Of a stretch of DNA of 28,038 nucleotides, positions 6,436 through 26,197 are shown in pieces. The notes beneath the pieces were generated by a model. It was not told the origin of the DNA. It ran no database searches and was given only the letters and a program-made list of their open reading frames with translations. How positions within the stretch are numbered: the first letter of the stretch is position 1; each line of letters starts with the position of its first letter. The stretch lies in the IMG/VR virus record IMGVR_UViG_3300032327_000104, positions 1 to 28,038 of that record; one strand, given 5' to 3'. The position numbers and the translations under genes were made by a program. Source of the stretch: a virus. Taxonomy: Duplodnaviria > Caudoviricetes.

Positions 6436-7365
6436 ATGCCAACAGCATCATCTTCAGGAACCACGGATTCCGCCGCCGATACCGGAGTCGGTCAACAAAC
6501 CGGCACCGAATCCTCCCTCTCAAACTGGGCGGGGCCGTATGTCACGGACATGTTGGCTCGTGGCCAAGCACTGGCCAACCAAGACTACCAAGCCTACGGT
6601 GGCCCACTGACCGCAGGTGAATCTGACCTCCAGAAGACGGCGTTTCAAGGCATCGCTGGCCTGACCATCCCTACCGATCAGATGGGTGCATTTGCACCTA
6701 AGACGTTTGACGCAACGCAAGCGCAAAACTACATGAACCCATACTTGACTGCGGCACTCAATCCGCAGATCGAGGAAGCCAAGCGCCAAGCGCAAATTCA
6801 AAACCTGCAAAACCGCACCGCAGCGACTAAAGCTGGCGCGTTTGGCGGCGGTCGCGGTGCCCTGATGGAGTCTGAAAACCAGCGCAACATGTTGCAAAAC
6901 CTTGCTGGCATTACCGGCAAAGGGTACTCAGACGCTTACTCGCAGGCGATGAACCAATTTAACGTCGAACAGGGGCGTGGCCAAACAGCCCAAGACGCCG
7001 CTAACCAATACGGTCTGGCCGCGCTCCAGAAGCAAGGCGAAGCTGGTGCAGCGCAGCGTGACATCGAGCAGCAAGGTATCACCGCTGACATGAAAGAGTT
7101 TGAAACTCAACGCGAGTTTCCGTACAAGCAGGTGCAGTATCAGCAGTCCCTGTTGCAAGGTCTCCCCCTCGCCGCACAGACTTACTCGTACTCGCAGCCC
7201 AGTGCGCTATCAAGTATTCTCAGTCAGGGCGGCGGCCTCATGGACTTGTACGACCGTATTTTTGGTGGGGCCACTCCTGCCCCTGCGCCAGCCCCTGCGC
7301 CAGCCCCTGCGCCAGCCCCTGCGCCAGCCCCTGCGCCAGCCCCTGCCCCTGCATCCGTTCCCTAA
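6436..7365 (+). CDS. Putative DNA ejection/pilot protein (309 aa), Gln/Ala-rich with YMNPY and GAFGGGR motifs and a (PA)13 tail
   Basis: SD GAGGT upstream. Motifs are typical of podovirus-like ejection proteins (recalled), and the operon context agrees. Confidence 0.75.
   Translation: MPTASSSGTTDSAADTGVGQQTGTESSLSNWAGPYVTDMLARGQALANQDYQAYGGPLTAGESDLQKTAFQGIAGLTIPTDQMGAFAPKTFDATQAQNYMNPYLTAALNPQIEEAKRQAQIQNLQNRTAATKAGAFGGGRGALMESENQRNMLQNLAGITGKGYSDAYSQAMNQFNVEQGRGQTAQDAANQYGLAALQKQGEAGAAQRDIEQQGITADMKEFETQREFPYKQVQYQQSLLQGLPLAAQTYSYSQPSALSSILSQGGGLMDLYDRIFGGATPAPAPAPAPAPAPAPAPAPAPAPAPASVP
7276..7353 (+). repeat. Pro-Ala microsatellite: five perfect CCTGCGCCAGCC units (7282-7341) with flanking CCTGCN units
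   Basis: Read directly from the sequence; encodes (PA)13. Confidence 0.95.
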
Positions 7366-9237: not shown

Positions 9238-12200
9238 ATGCCGCTGTACCAGATCACCGGCCCTGATGGTAATCTTTATGAGATTGAAGGGCCAGAAGGT
9301 GCAACTCGTCAGCAGGTAATTACTGCGGTTCAAAAGCGCATGTCTTCTCAAGAAGACACAGATGTAGAGTCCCGCCTGCAACAGCTACGCGCTGAGCGTG
9401 AAGAGTTACTCAAACCAAAACCTACTATCGGTGGCAACGTCAAAGAGACGTTTAAGGGGTTGGTTCCCGGTGCAATTGGTTTGGGCGAAACAGCGGTAAC
9501 TGGTATCGCATCGATGCTGCCCGACAGCACCGAGAAGGCCGCACGTGAGAAAATCAAAGAGCTTGCCGGTATCGCCAAGAAACCGTTTGAAGCTGGCGCT
9601 GGCTACGAGGATTCGGTTGGTCGTAAGCTGGGTGAAGGCTTAGGCTCAACGCTGCCGTTCTTCCTCGCTGGCCCGTTCGGTTTAGCTGGTCGCGTTGCCG
9701 CTGGCGGTCTCGGCGTTGCCGCTGGCGCTGGTGAGGCGCGAGAAGCCGCTGAAGCCAAAGGTGCCACTAGCGAAGAACGCCGCACCGCTACCTTGCTGGG
9801 TGCACCTACCGGTTTGCTGGACATCCTCGCCCCAGAGATCAAACCGTTCAAGAGCCTTATGGGTACCGCGCTGGTGCGTGGTGGTGTGGAAGGTGCAACG
9901 GAAGCGGCGCAGAAGATCGCGCAGAACCTGATCGCCAAAGGCGTCTACGATCCAAGCCAAGAGATTCTTGTCGGGTCTGGAGAAGAAGGCGCGTACGGCG
10001 CTGGAGTCGGTGCGCTGGCCAGCTTGATCGTTGACATGACAGTAGGTCGTAAGGCTCGTCGTGCATCATTGGGGCTGGACAAAGAAGCCCCCGCGCCCGA
10101 GGCCGAGACCAAGACACCCGAACAACTGCTGCTGGGCTACACCGCCGAGCCGTTCACCCCCGTGGCGTTGCCTGATGGCTCCGTCATCACATCCAAGGCC
10201 GAGTACGACGAGTACCAGAAGTCCAAGAAAGGTATTGCACGTCAGCGCGAGGAAGACTTGCGCACCTCTGACCCACTGGCGGGCTTGTCGTCGTTTGACC
10301 AGAACCTTGCGCGGCGCGGTAAAGAAGCGGCGCTCGCCGAGACATTTGGCCAAGAACCCGAGAAGGGCCAGCTTGGGTTGCCCGGTATTGAACGCGATGA
10401 TGGCACTGTGGAAGTGCCGGGACGTGGCCGTGTAGCAGGTGCTCCTACGGCAGAAGACGTTAAGGCTGCGGAGCCTACGGCTGAACGCGACACCCAGACC
10501 CGCGACATGATCGATGAGTTGGAGTCTCAGCAAATCGAAGAGTTGTACGCAAAAGATGAGCGCGAGGGGGCCAAAGCCAAGGCGGAAAAAGAACGTCTGA
10601 AGTTTGAGTCTGACCTTGCCGAATTGACTGGGCAGATGGATCGCAAGCAGGAGAAAACAACTGAGGACACACGCCTTCAGTTGTTGCTGCCCATCGTCGA
10701 ATCCAACGTCAAGAACATCCCCAAAGTGTTTGTGCAGGCGCTCAAGCGTGAGGGCATCACCAACGCAAACCTGACCGACCGCGAACGCAACCTCATCAAT
10801 CGTGCCTATGACATCCGTCTGGCCGAGGAGCCCGTGGCCGAAGCTGACGTTGTGCAGCCGCCCGAGGCGCAGGAAGAAGAACTGCAATCCATTGAGTCGC
10901 TCATTCCTGAGAAGAAGTCCCAGCGTGAACCCGAGCAGATGGGCCTCCCCGGCATGGGTAAGCCGAAGGGTGCCGCGCCCCAAGCCTTCTCCGAGGAGGA
11001 GATTGCGGCCCAAGAAAAGCCGTTCGCTACGGTGCTGACACCCGAGGTGCTGGCTACTGCTGGCCTGCCCAAGCAGTCTGGGTTCTACAAGCAGTTGCTC
11101 AACATGGACATGACCGACACTGCGCAGCAGCCTGTTGTCGCCAACATCTTTGGGCGCATTCGCACCAATCCCAACCTGTCTACGTCTACCAAGGATGCGG
11201 TCGAGAACTTGGCGATGCAAGCGTTTGGCGGTCTGGCCAAGCAAGGCGACATGTTCGTACCCGCGAAGCCAACCAAAACTACCAAGGAAGGTAAGAAAGA
11301 TGCCGACGCTACGAAACCCTCCGCCAAACCAGCAGGTGAACGAGGACGTAATAACAACGCAGGAGATGTCGCTGGAGGAACTGGAACTCGCGCTGAAGAT
11401 CGCAAAGGTAGCGGTCGAAAGGACGAACGCGCTGGAACCCCTGCTGATACCGAGCGCACTGAAGCACCTAAACCCGGTGGACTGGGAGATCGTGGGAGAC
11501 CTGCTGGCGAAGCTGGAAGTCGAGCAGGCGTGGAGTCAGGTGCACTGAAGACTGAGCCAAAGGGGGGTACGGAATCCAAGGCCGAGACCAAGGCCGAGAC
11601 CAAGGCCGAGACCGAGAAGCCTAAGAAGGCTAAGCCCTCCGCTTCATTCGGTGCATACGGCCAAGTGATGGAAGCTGAGAGCCGGTCAGACGCGCTCGAC
11701 TATCTGGCCTATGACATGTACGTGGCCATGTTCGAGAAGTTCAAGCTGCTAACCCGTGTTGATGTGCTCAACGATATTAACGCTCAGTTGCGACAAGGTA
11801 ATCTCCCCGGCGAAGTTGCGTTTGGCCGCGAAAGCACAACCTCAATCGTCCCTCTGAGCGGCGGCAAGTATGCCAAGGCGTTTTACGAGTCGTTGTCGGC
11901 GGCAGATCAAAAGGCACTCGCCCGAAAGATGGAGGACTACTTTGGCCGTTCCGAGGCCGAGGTGCGTCGAGGCTCGGCGCAGTTTAACGTGCAGCAAGAA
12001 ATCGCCCGTGCCACCAAAGAGCAAATGGATGGAGGCAAACTGAACCTATCCCGCGATGCGGTCGTGCTGGCGCTGCCTCTGCATCCTGCCATCCGCAAGG
12101 CGCTGAAAGCTGGTGACCTGCGCGGTGCCCTGACCATGCTGGCTTCGCAGAACCTTGGCCGTGCATCCGAAGTCGCCAAGAAGTTGGCTGACGCAATCGG

Positions 12201-15200
12201 CAATACCAAGGTTGAACTGGAGCCCATGCTTCTCAACGCCGAGGACGTTCCGGTTGCTGGCCTGTACGACCCCAAGACAGACACCATCAAGCTAGACGCG
12301 GAAGAAGGCTTGAACATTCACGTGCTATTACATGAAGCGGTACATGCCGCTACATCACATGTGATAGAAAACAAGTCACACCCTGTAACCAAACAACTTA
12401 CAGAGCTTTACAACAACGTCAAGGACTCGCTGGACACAGCATACGGCGCACAGTCTTTGGACGAGTTCGTTGCTGAATCTTTCAGCAACCCAGAGTTTCA
12501 GCAGAAGCTGGCCGCGATCAACCCCAAGGGTGAGGCGATCACTGCATGGCAACGGTTCACGCACGCTATTCGCAACTTTGTGCGGTCGATCATGGGCGAG
12601 GGTACCAAGGGCATGGGCACTGCGCTCGACGCTTCGGACTCTCTGATCAATACCATCTTGTCGCCTGCACCTGACTCCCGAGATGCTGGCTCGTTGTATT
12701 CGGCCTCCTTGCTGGGCAACGGTTCCCAAATCTTCAAAGCCTTGGACGACCGAATCCTGTCTATGCCGGTGATGGGTACCGACACGATTGCACGGATATA
12801 CGACATGGTGCGTAACGCCCCGCAGACCGTCAAGAAAATCATCTTGCGTAGCTTGCCGCTGAACGTGCTGACCGAAGTCGCCACCAAAGATGTTCCCATG
12901 GCGTCCAAGCTCAACGAGTTGGAGCGGCTGTGGAACGGTGCAAAAGACAAACGCATGCGTGAGACCAACGCCACCATGTCACGCATCCAGAACTGGGTGA
13001 AAGGCAACCCCGAGAAAGAAGTCATCCTGAACGATGTCATTGCTACCAGTACGCTGGAGCAGGTTGATCCATCCAAGTCTCGCGCCGACTACAAAGGCAA
13101 GCAATCCGATAGCGGTGCAGACAAGCAAAAAATTTGGGATGAGTTGCAACCTCAGTGGAACAAACTTGGCTCTGAAGGCCAGAGCGTCTACAAACAGATG
13201 CGCGACACGTACAAGAAAACGTACGACGACTTGCTTGACTTGTTGATGAAGCGCATCGACGACTCCGTGGAGAACAAGGAAGATGCCAAGAAGCTGCGCA
13301 CTGAGATTTATCAGCGCCTTGCCACCAAGGGAAAGATCGAGCCGTACTTTCCGCTGACACGTTCGGGCGACTTCCGCTTGTCGTATGACCTCAAGGGTGA
13401 GCACTACGTCGAGCACTACGAGACCTCGGTTGCGCGTGAACGTGCGGTCAAAGAACTGGAGAGCGTTGGTGAGGCCAAGAACGTGCAGCGGTTCAAAGGT
13501 GGCTCCAAGCGCACGTACAAGGACGCACCTTCAACCTCGTTCGTGAACTCTATCTTGCGAACACTCGAAGCCAACAAAGTCGATCCAGAAGTGACCGACG
13601 AGATCATGCGGACGTTCTTGTCAACGCTGCCTGAGTCGTCGTTCGCTCAAGCGTTCCGCGCTCGTAAAAACACCCCCGGCTTCAGCTTCAACGCAACGGG
13701 CGCGTTCTATTCACGCTCTATGAGCATGGCCCATCAGTTGCCAAATATGGAGTACAGCGCCAAGGCATACAAGCTGCGCGATGAGATCGACGAGCACGCC
13801 AAGAAGAAGGGCGACGAGCAGACCCGCCTCGTAGCTGACGAGTTGAACAATCACATTGAGACGCTGGTCAGCCCTAACATTGCACCTTGGTCTAAGGCCG
13901 TGTCTTCGTTGGCTTTTGGTTGGACGCTGGGCTTTAACGTGTCGTCCGCTGTGGTCAACATGTCGCAGGTGCCGTTGGTGATGGCACCTTACCTCGGCGG
14001 TAAGTACGGCTACCCCGAAACCATGAAAGCCATCGGGTCTGCAACCAAGGTATTCATGGGTAGTGGGCGCAAGCGTATGGTCAAGATGACGGTGCCCACC
14101 GCTGACGGTAAAGAGACCATCGAACAAACAGGTGGCTTCTCGTTGGACAACTACGACTTTGATGCCAAGGACACCCCACCGGAAGTCAAGCGCCTCAAAG
14201 AGTTGTCAGAGATTGCCGACAAGTACGGCCTGCTCGACCGCTCGATGACAAGCGACATGCTCGATATGAACGAGAAGTCATCTCCGCTCGACCGCATCAA
14301 CGCATACTCAGGGTTCATCTTCCACCACGGCGAGCGCATGAACCGCCAGATTTCCTTGATCGCTTCCTACGAGCTTGAGCTTGGGCGCATGGCCAAGGAA
14401 GGCAAGAAGGTTGACGCCGCCGCACGCACCGAAGCGGCCAAGCGAGCCGTGGAGATCGCCGAAACCATGAACGGTGGCGCGTCCGCAGGTAGTGCGCCCC
14501 TGCTGGCAAAGAACTCCATCGGCAAGATCATGTTCATGTACAAACGGTACGGTGTCACCATGTACTACATGATGTTCAAGATGGCCCGTGAAGCCATGAA
14601 GTCTGAGGACAAGAAAGTCCGTGACGCCGCCATGCGCCAGATCGTGGGTATCTACGCCTCCGCTGGCGTGATGGCTGGGGTGCAGGGTCTGCCGATGTTT
14701 GGTATCTTGGCCGCTGTCTACAACCTGTTCAAGGGTGATGACGAAGACGACGCTGAGACCGCTGCACGTAAGTATTTTGGCGAAGGCTTGTTCAACGGTG
14801 CAGTCAACTACCTGACTGGCACGGCTGTCGCCAACCGTATCGGCTTGTCCGACTTGCTGATCAGCGGCACGGGGTACAAAGAGCAAGACAACACAATTTT
14901 GTCGTTCTTGCAACTCGTGGGTGGCCCAGCCTATGGCGTAGCCGACCGACTGCAACAAGGCGTCAAGCTGATCATGGAAGGTGAGACTGAGCGCGGTTTG
15001 GAGCGCATACTCCCCGCAGGTATTTCCAACGGGTTAAAGGGTATTCGGTTTGCAACCGAGGGTGCCAACACCCTGCGCGGCGACCCCATTACAGGTGACA
15101 TCAGCGGGTACAACGCTGGCGCACAGTTCCTTGGCTTTGCACCTGCCGAATACACCCGCCAGTTGGAGATCAACGCATCGCTCAAGAACATCGAGCGCCG

Positions 15201-15468
15201 TGCGATCAAAGAGCGTACCAAGATGCTCCGCGACTACTACATCGCGGCACGAGTCGGCGATTCCGAGGGGGTGGCAGACGCGCTGGATGACATGTTCAAG
15301 TTCAACGCAATGCACCCCGGCGCGGCAATCACAGCCGAGACTATCCAAAACTCAATGACTCAGCACATGAAAACGTCGCAAGAAATGTACCACGGCGTGA
15401 CGCTCAACAAAAAGTTGCGCTCCGAGTTGCTGCAAAACGCCGCTGAGTACGACGATGGGTTGCTGTAA
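9238..15468 (+). CDS. Large polyvalent-type virion protein (2076 aa) with zincin-like metallopeptidase (HEAVH) and PLxRFG-like domain
   Basis: SD TAAGGAG. GLYDPKTDTI...LLHEAVH (12331-12345)...EFVAE. YFPLTRSG at 13345-13368. Gly/Ala-rich hydrophobic N-terminal region. Last gene before the convergent terminator. Confidence 0.85.
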   Translation: MPLYQITGPDGNLYEIEGPEGATRQQVITAVQKRMSSQEDTDVESRLQQLRAEREELLKPKPTIGGNVKETFKGLVPGAIGLGETAVTGIASMLPDSTEKAAREKIKELAGIAKKPFEAGAGYEDSVGRKLGEGLGSTLPFFLAGPFGLAGRVAAGGLGVAAGAGEAREAAEAKGATSEERRTATLLGAPTGLLDILAPEIKPFKSLMGTALVRGGVEGATEAAQKIAQNLIAKGVYDPSQEILVGSGEEGAYGAGVGALASLIVDMTVGRKARRASLGLDKEAPAPEAETKTPEQLLLGYTAEPFTPVALPDGSVITSKAEYDEYQKSKKGIARQREEDLRTSDPLAGLSSFDQNLARRGKEAALAETFGQEPEKGQLGLPGIERDDGTVEVPGRGRVAGAPTAEDVKAAEPTAERDTQTRDMIDELESQQIEELYAKDEREGAKAKAEKERLKFESDLAELTGQMDRKQEKTTEDTRLQLLLPIVESNVKNIPKVFVQALKREGITNANLTDRERNLINRAYDIRLAEEPVAEADVVQPPEAQEEELQSIESLIPEKKSQREPEQMGLPGMGKPKGAAPQAFSEEEIAAQEKPFATVLTPEVLATAGLPKQSGFYKQLLNMDMTDTAQQPVVANIFGRIRTNPNLSTSTKDAVENLAMQAFGGLAKQGDMFVPAKPTKTTKEGKKDADATKPSAKPAGERGRNNNAGDVAGGTGTRAEDRKGSGRKDERAGTPADTERTEAPKPGGLGDRGRPAGEAGSRAGVESGALKTEPKGGTESKAETKAETKAETEKPKKAKPSASFGAYGQVMEAESRSDALDYLAYDMYVAMFEKFKLLTRVDVLNDINAQLRQGNLPGEVAFGRESTTSIVPLSGGKYAKAFYESLSAADQKALARKMEDYFGRSEAEVRRGSAQFNVQQEIARATKEQMDGGKLNLSRDAVVLALPLHPAIRKALKAGDLRGALTMLASQNLGRASEVAKKLADAIGNTKVELEPMLLNAEDVPVAGLYDPKTDTIKLDAEEGLNIHVLLHEAVHAATSHVIENKSHPVTKQLTELYNNVKDSLDTAYGAQSLDEFVAESFSNPEFQQKLAAINPKGEAITAWQRFTHAIRNFVRSIMGEGTKGMGTALDASDSLINTILSPAPDSRDAGSLYSASLLGNGSQIFKALDDRILSMPVMGTDTIARIYDMVRNAPQTVKKIILRSLPLNVLTEVATKDVPMASKLNELERLWNGAKDKRMRETNATMSRIQNWVKGNPEKEVILNDVIATSTLEQVDPSKSRADYKGKQSDSGADKQKIWDELQPQWNKLGSEGQSVYKQMRDTYKKTYDDLLDLLMKRIDDSVENKEDAKKLRTEIYQRLATKGKIEPYFPLTRSGDFRLSYDLKGEHYVEHYETSVARERAVKELESVGEAKNVQRFKGGSKRTYKDAPSTSFVNSILRTLEANKVDPEVTDEIMRTFLSTLPESSFAQAFRARKNTPGFSFNATGAFYSRSMSMAHQLPNMEYSAKAYKLRDEIDEHAKKKGDEQTRLVADELNNHIETLVSPNIAPWSKAVSSLAFGWTLGFNVSSAVVNMSQVPLVMAPYLGGKYGYPETMKAIGSATKVFMGSGRKRMVKMTVPTADGKETIEQTGGFSLDNYDFDAKDTPPEVKRLKELSEIADKYGLLDRSMTSDMLDMNEKSSPLDRINAYSGFIFHHGERMNRQISLIASYELELGRMAKEGKKVDAAARTEAAKRAVEIAETMNGGASAGSAPLLAKNSIGKIMFMYKRYGVTMYYMMFKMAREAMKSEDKKVRDAAMRQIVGIYASAGVMAGVQGLPMFGILAAVYNLFKGDDEDDAETAARKYFGEGLFNGAVNYLTGTAVANRIGLSDLLISGTGYKEQDNTILSFLQLVGGPAYGVADRLQQGVKLIMEGETERGLERILPAGISNGLKGIRFATEGANTLRGDPITGDISGYNAGAQFLGFAPAEYTRQLEINASLKNIERRAIKERTKMLRDYYIAARVGDSEGVADALDDMFKFNAMHPGAAITAETIQNSMTQHMKTSQEMYHGVTLNKKLRSELLQNAAEYDDGLL
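11300..11548 (+). CDS. Candidate overprinted (+1 frame) 82-aa protein nested in the 2076-aa gene
   Basis: AAGGAAGGT SD-like sequence upstream of ATG 11300. Product is protein-like and helical (MSLEELELALKIA...IPSALKHLNPVDWEIVGDLLAKLEVEQAWSQVH). The host frame here is a low-complexity linker. Confidence 0.6.
   Translation: MPTLRNPPPNQQVNEDVITTQEMSLEELELALKIAKVAVERTNALEPLLIPSALKHLNPVDWEIVGDLLAKLEVEQAWSQVH
11578..11613 (+). repeat. Three perfect 12-bp tandem repeats AAGGCCGAGACC encoding (KAET)3
   Basis: Read directly from the sequence. Confidence 0.9.
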
Positions 15469-15469
15469 T

Positions 15470-15500
15470 AAAAAAGCCCCCGCTTGTTACGGCGGGGGCT
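15470..15500 (-). terminator. Intrinsic terminator at the convergence of the two modules (strong on - strand, possibly bidirectional)
   Basis: 9-bp stem AGCCCCCGC/GCGGGGGCT with 8-nt loop. A U-tract follows on the - strand; on the + strand GAACCTTTTT follows. Confidence 0.85.
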
Positions 15501-15528
15501 GAACCTTTTTCAAGGAGAACGAAGTGAC
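15470..15528 (-). ncRNA. Candidate trans-acting antisense small RNA (~59 nt) with anti-RBS 5' seed
   Basis: Extended -10 upstream and terminator at the 3' end. 5' GUCACUUCGUUCUCCUU is complementary to the RBS/start regions at 19636-19646, 20332-20344, 21930-21939, 25311-25322 and 26176-26187. Confidence 0.6.
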
Positions 15529-15534
15529 GGTGCA

Positions 15535-15563
15535 ATACTATCACAAGCGTCTCCAAATACGAA
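15535..15563 (-). promoter_or_regulatory. Putative sigma70 extended -10 promoter for the candidate sRNA
   Basis: - strand reads TTCGTA-N17-TAGTAT, with TGTGA immediately before the -10 (TGn extended -10). Confidence 0.5.
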
Positions 15564-15804
15564 CCCCCCATCGCCCACCTTCAATGCCGGGGCGGTAGTG
15601 GACGACCCATTCCCGCATGGTTGTTATCTGGTGCACTTGACGCACAAGCTCCAGCGTGTTAACGCAGGGGATGAACACAGAGGCACCCACTGGGAACTTG
15701 TCCCAACGGACAACGATACGCACCCCATCGGGCGCAAGGTCGTCAAGCCTGACCCTGTTTCTCGAACAGCGCGGCGGTTGTCGCCAAAACTTGCTCAGTT
15801 TCAT
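15541..15804 (-). CDS. Small conserved phage protein (87 aa), possibly DNA-binding (W..F.VG.SVFIPC...GVRIWR)
   Basis: Overlaps the primase 3' end and has AGGA upstream. The motif pattern is recalled from small proteins downstream of phage primases. Confidence 0.65.
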   Translation of the reverse strand: MKLSKFWRQPPRCSRNRVRLDDLAPDGVRIVVRWDKFPVGASVFIPCVNTLELVRQVHQITTMREWVVHYRPGIEGGRWGVRIWRRL

Positions 15805-18598: not shown

Positions 18599-18631
18599 AG
18601 CCGCCGATGGTTAGAGTGAATGAGATGACTG

Positions 18632-18682
18632 AAAAGGCGGGGCGGTGTGCGCTCCCCCGGGAACCCCCAGAGGCACCGCCCC
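18632..18682 (-). terminator. Long GC-rich hairpin between SSB and primase (terminator/attenuator or processing site)
   Basis: - strand: GGGGCGGUG-CCUCUGGG-GGUU-CCCGGGGG-(AGCGCA)-CACCGCCCC followed by GCCUUUUC. Confidence 0.6.
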
Positions 18683-19635: not shown

Positions 19636-19648
19636 CTTCGTTCTCCAG

Positions 19649-19930: not shown

Positions 19931-20334
19931 TTTCTCCGTACGGTTATGGTGTATTCGCTGTCCACGTTGAGTCCCGGTGGTAGCAATTCAGGGTTAGCCT
20001 CAAGGAACTCTTTGAGGTTGGTTTGATGTATGCGCTGATGCAGTAAATGCGGCGCGTTGTGCTCGACGATAAACTTGTGCATGGACTCCCAATCGTTTGT
20101 CCAGTAGTCCACCTTGGTAGTGCGATAGAACAAGCCTTCACCTGTCCGCACACTGTCCACGTTCTGGTCTTTACAGAACGCCAATAGCGCAGACTTCACC
20201 TTGCTCATCTGAGTGGACAGCTTCTTTTCTTCGATCTCGTAGGCGACACGCATCTCGTCGTGCTTGGCCTTCATCTTGAGGTAAACCTTAACCAGCGTCT
20301 CGGGGGCGATGGCAGGAATGGGCTCTTCTGACAC
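19927..20334 (-). CDS. Conserved phage replication-module protein (135 aa), N-terminal coiled coil
   Basis: GTG start after GGAGAACGAA. SVRT..G...DW.....FI......LL..RI....PPGL pattern. Has its own promoter. Confidence 0.75.
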   Translation of the reverse strand: MSEEPIPAIAPETLVKVYLKMKAKHDEMRVAYEIEEKKLSTQMSKVKSALLAFCKDQNVDSVRTGEGLFYRTTKVDYWTNDWESMHKFIVEHNAPHLLHQRIHQTNLKEFLEANPELLPPGLNVDSEYTITVRRK

Positions 20335-20366
20335 TTCGTTCTCCAGTTGTAGTTGTGAGGCTTTCT

Positions 20367-20395
20367 ATTGTAGTGATGTTTCCCGCCTTATTCAA
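20367..20395 (-). promoter_or_regulatory. sigma70-type promoter TTGAAT-N17-TACAAT
   Basis: Near-consensus hexamers with 17-bp spacing in the intergenic gap upstream of the 20334 gene. Confidence 0.75.
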
Positions 20396-21929: not shown

Positions 21930-22002
21930 TTCGTTCCCCAGCGCAAACGGCGTAGCGGAGCGAAGTGGGTGTCCCACTCGCCCTCGTCACCGTCGAAGTT
22001 CT

Positions 22003-25310: not shown

Positions 25311-25331
25311 CTTCGTTCTCCTGTTATGTTA

Positions 25332-26175: not shown

Positions 26176-26197
26176 CTTCGTTTCCTTTAAGTTAGTT

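Follow-up and report, generated by a model that had tools for sequence, protein, structure and literature searches.

A predicted antisense RNA at the end of a phage replication arm and its covariation with the initiation regions of early and replication genes

Occlusion of the Shine-Dalgarno (SD) sequence by small RNAs (sRNAs) is established (PMC7398697; PMC5688073; 10.1101/2022.04.08.487710), and the available portions of the papers cited here describe several systems with which the locus reported below can be compared. In Vibrio cholerae, the sRNAs OppZ and CarZ are released by RNase E from the 3′ ends of operons and block the translation of their own transcript, a negative feedback (PMC7398697). 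The c4 RNA of phages P1 and P7 (RF01695) is phage-encoded, about 77 nt long, and acts in trans at the ribosome-binding site (RBS) of a phage mRNA, that of the antirepressor, in temperate immunity (PMC12197685). SviR of the Vibrio satellite PLE is induced by the helper phage and has two seed regions, one of them aimed at that phage; it acts on several targets by RBS occlusion, its own operons included (10.1101/2022.04.08.487710). The Betaproteobacteria toxic small RNAs (RF02278), or Burkholderia double-hairpin RNAs, consist of a hairpin and a terminator within 57–92 nt, are chromosomal, occur in 3–5 copies and have predicted targets in host carbon metabolism (PMC5688073; PMC4603805). In phage T4, two proteins act at the initiation regions of early genes and so shut down these genes of the phage itself as a group: the endonuclease RegB, which reads GGAG with an A-rich tail, and the repressor RegA (PMC3014915). 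According to the available part of a 2024 review, the role of non-coding RNA in lytic phages is still to be elucidated (PMC10884466), and a literature search that mostly left subscription papers aside found no RNA of the kind described below in a lytic phage. The motif may be among the 8,495 DNA-virus candidates of PMC10690425, without assigned targets; in the available supplement of that paper, three tables searched for motifs and one searched for six contig names gave no matches.

The element analyzed here lies in a 28-kb piece of a phage record (the window, by which we mean the whole stretch of DNA under study), where the replication arm on the − strand ends. Like OppZ and CarZ it sits at an operon 3′ end and is predicted to pair with the same operon; unlike these bacterial RNAs it has its own conserved promoter and several targets and belongs to a phage. 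Its predicted targets are replication genes, in contrast to the antirepressor mRNA of c4. Identity with c4 was rejected, as RF01695 was found in 0/5 genomes at E ≤ 1 and nowhere in the window region, and no integrase was found in 5/5 genomes. The likeness to SviR, a satellite RNA, is functional, and in the role that T4 gives to RegA and RegB an RNA is predicted here.

No family reached its gathering cut-off in an Rfam scan. The best RF02278 match falls exactly on the element, end to end, in the window (27 bits) and in 4 of 10 genomes (G001, G004, G005, and G006; 22–38 bits), always below the cut-off of 50 bits, and no match was obtained in the other six (G007–G012). Second, weaker RF02278-like matches of 19–20 bits (G001:C1:38657–38715 and G006:C1:53138–53194) are probably terminators. 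Like the RF02278 RNAs, the element holds a CU-rich stretch complementary to RBSs, a hairpin and a terminator in about 60 nt; unlike them it is phage-encoded, comes from virus records, and has targets that covary among the phage's own genes. We predict that it works like this family while lying outside its cut-off, the resemblance being due either to shared ancestry or to convergence. Together with the growth inhibition seen when RF02278 RNAs are overexpressed (PMC5688073), the resemblance would also suit an anti-SD RNA aimed outward, at host mRNAs or superinfecting relatives, with pairing to the phage's own genes being secondary. We regard an outward aim as quite improbable: the matches never reach the cut-off and are absent from six genomes, and the seed follows the RBSs of the phage's own early genes, not those of the late ones.

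The predicted RNA and its putative pairing sites in the window

The − strand arm encodes a family A polymerase, a PD-(D/E)XK nuclease, an SNF2 helicase, an excisionase-like HTH protein and a DUF927 primase. It converges on a + strand arm of very large genes, and the junction lies at 15468–15541. On the + strand the junction is bordered by the LPD39 gene (2076 aa; 9238..15468), whose stop adjoins the terminator U tract; elsewhere on this strand, a Pro-Ala repeat run at about 7290–7360 closes a 309-aa gene. On the − strand the border is the last gene of the replication arm, which encodes 87 aa (15541..15804; a weak DUF7303 lead, score 0.88).

Read on the − strand, the 72-nt intergenic gap has the layout that had been described for it: an extended −10, a seed, a hairpin, a terminator and a U run. 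The predicted extended −10, TGTG-A-TAGTAT (15535..15545, −), is made up of TGTGA at 15545–15541 and TAGTAT at 15540–15535, and the TGA inside TGTGA is the stop codon of the 87-aa gene. A −35 hexamer, TTCGTA, is predicted 17 bp from the −10 at 15558..15563 (−), within the coding sequence of the last gene, where the conservation of this column is confounded with coding constraint. From the promoter spacing, we predict an sRNA of ∼59 nt (15470..15528, −); in relatives the predicted RNA has about 70–75 nt (family range 60–75 nt). The seed, which is complementary to SD sequences and start codons (15512..15528, −), is assigned on complementarity and covariation. A weak inner hairpin, CCUU-GAAA-AAGG (15504..15515, −), would partly mask its anti-SD core; this small tetraloop hairpin of the original prediction is present in the MFE structure and missing from the centroid structure. 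Structure prediction also allows the window's seed to fold back onto the end of the last gene. The intrinsic terminator (15470..15500, −; stem 15500–15475, U run to 15470) is predicted to end both the replication arm and the sRNA.

The RNAs of most relatives open with a 5′ hairpin, in which 4 of 5 pairs show two-sided changes and 94% of cells are paired (26 sequences). A remnant of it is left in the window (15525..15531, −): the 5′ arm and the loop, about 12 nt, are missing, and among the 26 aligned sequences the window is the one case of a missing 5′ arm. The shortening at 15525–15534 either reflects a true deletion within the hairpin or arose during assembly. The short form was not found in metagenome_contigs, a search outside which the window's own record perhaps lies. 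The window's copy is predicted either to have lost control of the primase or to carry an assembly error.

Exact matches to the complement of the seed were recovered at 20344 (13 nt, 135-aa gene), 25322 (12 nt, 160-aa gene) and 19646 (11 nt, putative SSB), in agreement with the complementarities first reported, and no further match of at least 10 nt to 15501–15545 exists on either strand of the window. The chance count of an 11-mer, previously put at about 0.01, was computed as 0.014. The predicted target sites comprise the RBS and GTG start of the 135-aa gene (20332..20344, −) and the RBS of the 314-aa putative SSB (19636..19646, −), both defined by an exact match and covariation, and the RBS of the 160-aa gene (25311..25322, −), defined by an exact match and pairing energy. 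Corrected for accessibility through opening costs, the pairing energies in the window are −17.1 kcal/mol for the 160-aa gene (25310), −15.9 for the 135-aa gene (20334), −15.9 for the putative SSB (19635) and −10.4 for the 109-aa gene (26175). In the last of these a probable target site, with a 1-nt gap, covers the RBS (26176..26187, −), and early genes of two relatives (G001 and G003) have RBSs that resemble it. The SNF2 helicase (21929), which has a TTG start in the window, had also been named as a target. Pairing at its RBS (21930..21939, −) amounts to just −6.0 kcal/mol in the window, level with non-targets (polymerase −5.4; best + strand gene −5.6), and its support comes from covariation in the family. 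The excisionase-like gene reaches −9.5 in the window, without family support. The start region of the primase (18599..18605, −), which pairs with the 5′ part of the relatives' RNAs, has no pairing to the window's shortened RNA.

The target motif agrees with the T4 RegB/S1 consensus GGAGRAYARAA (PMC3014915, available part) at 9 of 11 positions, at sites 20344–20334, 19646–19636, and 25321–25311. In the gap between putative SSB and primase (about 18620–18660, −), a stem-loop followed by a pyrimidine tract is seen in most clades shown; it stands directly upstream of a primase start that has no clear SD in the window, and is possibly an attenuator or a processing site.

Of the earlier gene labels, “SSB” is used here as a putative one, since Pfam and PDB searches with the 314-aa protein gave no match, and “HTH” for the 109-aa gene corresponds to matches at E 0.03–0.1 only. 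The 135-aa gene has a DUF7307 lead and is preceded by a conserved sigma70-type promoter (20367..20395, −; 105 of 146 loci vs. 9.5 in shuffles). The 160-aa gene is the head of an overlapping chain of polymerase, exonuclease and 98-aa gene. It had been called translationally coupled to the polymerase; the TAA/ATG overlap between the two is seen in the window, and the coupling itself is presumed from it.

Conservation of the element in related loci

Relatives were collected from viral_contigs in five scans that used the 87-aa last gene as query. Of the 278 loci obtained, some were repeats from the same contig; once duplicates were merged and the window was added, 183 distinct 3′ ends remained, a sample of the about 650 stored stretches that carry the last gene. 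With a loose parse, a sigma70-type −10, an anti-SD stretch and a terminator follow the replication arm in 151 of the 183 distinct loci; the terminator is present in 166. A parsable element is missing in about one locus of six, including some whole clades (e.g., L065, L167, L181, L228). The pattern TA...T follows 118 of 138 TGA stops of the last gene vs. 5 of 948 stops of seven other genes, and where the last gene does not end in TGA, TGnTAnnnT is found further downstream in 28 of 45 loci. A stricter promoter scan was positive in 87 of 176 loci vs. 5.9 in shuffles. The −10 is conserved outside coding sequence, and in one clade it stands apart from the stop codon. Four loci have an extra gene (L133, L134, L151, and L175), and in these the unit formed by anti-SD stretch and terminator is displaced ∼520 nt downstream, to where the arm now ends. 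Conservation of the −10 suggests that the RNA would be transcribed as such rather than produced by mRNA cleavage; in one RNA run, of which a small share was consulted, the element is not covered. A second weak hairpin masks the anti-SD core beyond what is seen with shuffled flanks in 61 of 85 distinct RNAs, and the cost of opening the seed is higher within a long mRNA in 78 of 119 cases, a comparison without a control.

Two deviating forms were observed. A longer variant (L080, L101, L130, L147, L162, and L172) carries the pyrimidine-rich anti-SD stretch within a larger 5′ hairpin and has an extra hairpin. One clade (L212, L213, L220, L222, L230, L235, L239, L250, and L258) has tandem 10-bp repeats of the GGAGTTGTAT type, in 2–4 copies downstream of the stop of the last gene and ahead of the −10, which are possibly regulator sites or iterons.

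We assign the RNA to the − strand because of the promoter, because a U-rich tail is rare on the opposite strand (12 of 162 loci), and because no + strand ORF is conserved; the U tail on the RNA strand, found in 160 of 162 loci, is true by construction. On the + strand (15468–15530) the late arm is without a U tail at the hairpin in 150 of 162 loci, and late transcripts may read through the junction carrying a mimic of the target site. The locus could instead be nothing but the close of the replication arm, a 3′ UTR with the terminator that is required there anyway, and in the window the seed is able to fold onto the end of the last gene; or a small antisense peptide could be translated from an RBS on the + strand, as a start codon stands behind the + strand SD-like copy in 74 of 148 loci. 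We give hardly any credence to this pair of explanations. The ORFs behind those start codons span 1 to 131 codons in differing frames, and a + strand RBS for a peptide was rejected on these grounds; the proposal that the site works only as a + strand RBS, raised beforehand as the competing explanation, fails with it. Complementarity as a by-product of a terminator explains neither the gene-specific covariation nor the conserved −10.

The 87-aa last gene had no match among 50,697 phage records, and in genome_contigs two weak non-viral loci were matched, by the last gene only. No such element was found at the junctions examined in the nearest cultured phages, whether nearest by primase (Rollin, RHph_TM3_14A) or by capsid (Pag-Yong1, CRP-901, DSL-LC04, HTVC023P). 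The four phages nearest by capsid gave no match to the window's primase or putative SSB. One podovirus-like record (G004; L122–L125) encodes GroES and a 2OG-Fe(II) oxygenase, and its capsid is 57–73% identical to the capsids of these four.

Covariation of the RNA with the start regions

In the swap test, the RNA was permuted against the start region at clade level, with starts chosen by a generic SD rule. The test kept 153 of the 183 loci, each of which had to be placed in the tree and to have a parsed RNA and one or more of three start regions, and excluded the 160-aa and 109-aa targets (12 and 1 loci). Start codons and RNA ends were set by simple rules, with visible mis-calls. The cognate combination had an advantage of −2.5 to −2.6 kcal/mol for the helicase, −2.9 to −3.4 for the 135-aa gene, −2.5 to −2.9 for the putative SSB and −2.4 to −2.7 for the primase, each with p = 5e-5 (68, 45, and 28 clades). 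The polymerase was borderline (p 0.05–0.10), and no cognate advantage was detected in this test for the excisionase-like, last, exonuclease and 98-aa genes (p > 0.13). In disjoint nearest-clade pairs, own exceeded swapped pairing in 28 of 34 when the best of four targets was taken (p = 1e-4). Gene by gene, the counts were 16/21, 24/34, and 22/32 for the three targets other than SSB, which alone was weak (11/19, sign p 0.32); the “last” control was borderline (Wilcoxon p 0.03). Across ten near-complete genomes, the value was −1.30 for same-strand genes (p < 1e-4) vs. +0.40 for opposite-strand genes (p = 0.93), the same-strand advantage being absent in G011 and weak in two more of the ten.

The signal is divided over the RNA. 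The anti-SD core carries that of the helicase, the 135-aa gene and the putative SSB and nothing for the primase; the 5′ part carries the primase signal (p 0.011) and part of that of SSB (p 0.003). The primase is a predicted target in the family through a second, 5′ part of the RNA, which is lost in the window. The covarying genes start after intergenic gaps (median 11–81 nt), and the excisionase-like gene overlaps its neighbor in 97% of 173 loci. Individual loci show how seed and target change together: the reversed seed AAGGAGAAACGAGATG stands against the target aggagaaacgagATG in L046, AAGGAGAACTGA against aaggagaactgagATG in L054, GGAGAATTGA against ggagaattgaaATG in L102, and GGAGAATGATG against gagaatgATG in L220. 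In each of five close genomes, AACGA[AG] occurs in 4–7 early-strand start regions vs. 0–1 late ones, and it occurs in 0/33 early start regions of G005, which has a different seed. The covariation of seed and RBS proposed as a check in relatives is therefore seen for the helicase, the 135-aa gene, the putative SSB and the primase, and it supports the core of the original prediction, one putative sRNA facing a shared extended RBS, with the primase added as a target.

The covariation is mostly by identity. The share of G:U among mismatches is not raised (p 0.21–0.54), and real duplexes have a weak edge over mirror duplexes (pooled p 0.14 and 0.037, with significance reached by no gene on its own). 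Such covariation would also suit a motif bound by a protein, either as DNA, in the form of an operator recognized by a phage HTH protein, or as an RNA site of the RegA/RegB/S1 type. The inverted copy at the junction would then be a further operator, or would act as a decoy within late read-through transcripts, for which the missing U tail of the late strand leaves room; HTH-type genes are present, and the fit of the target motif to the RegB/S1 consensus points the same way. We nevertheless consider a protein site unlikely. The copy of the motif is antisense, with a promoter on one side of it and a terminator on the other. The sites preserve the spacing of an RBS and are non-palindromic, and promoters nearby are rare (helicase 6/114, SSB 1/103, primase 1/150). 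For the primase, moreover, it is another part of the element that covaries. Finally, one-base differences in length between seed and target are common within genomes, which fits an RNA duplex because a duplex tolerates such differences.

Predicted action and role in the phage

Taken together, the comparison of sequences indicates that the element is conserved and that its covariation is gene-specific. Its own promoter, intrinsic terminator and conserved complementarity to distant initiation regions are, at the sequence level, the features of a trans-acting sRNA, and we think it likely that such an sRNA occludes those sites in the replication arm at which translation starts independently. The host sigma70 polymerase would transcribe an RNA of 60–75 nt from the extended −10, and part of the RNA pool might arise by cleavage of the replication-arm mRNA at its 3′ end. 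Pairing would begin at the exposed bases complementary to the spacer; the inner hairpin would then open, and the SD and start codon would become covered. The anti-SD core would engage the helicase, the 135-aa gene and the putative SSB, and the 5′ part the primase. By this pairing in trans the translation of early and replication genes would be repressed as a group, and genes whose starts overlap an upstream stop would follow by translational coupling. Since it would act where ribosomes enter the coupled gene chains, the sRNA would scale the arm as a whole.

As for its purpose, we see about an even chance that the RNA is a brake of the lytic cycle, which would cap or end the synthesis of replication proteins as RNA and genome copies accumulate. 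The promoter has no visible delay, so that an accumulating threshold or dosage brake would fit better than a sharp switch; the timing is not accounted for by a sigma70 promoter without obvious delay. A role in lysogeny or pseudolysogeny had also been suggested. Tyrosine integrase and resolvase (PF00589, PF00239) were found in none of five near-complete genomes, and no convincing prophage was found in genome_contigs, which makes a lytic role likelier than one in lysogeny and speaks against that suggestion. More tentatively, and with slightly less than even confidence, we propose that a widespread lytic phage family may have replaced T4-style RegA/RegB with one two-seed sRNA, captured from or converged on host anti-SD double-hairpin RNAs. 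It would gate every independent ribosome entry site of the early and replication genes, with the coupled genes following, and set the dose and the end of replication-protein synthesis.

This large, uncultured phage family supplies a conserved candidate RNA, named targets and dozens of natural seed–target pairs. The pairs would serve as ready-made compensatory controls and spare the engineering of RBSs, the step described as blocking proof of pairing for SviR in the available part of that study (10.1101/2022.04.08.487710). If the proposed action is true, the family would offer a clear case of sRNA–target coevolution among deeply diverged lineages, and repressors orthogonal to one another could be drawn from it.
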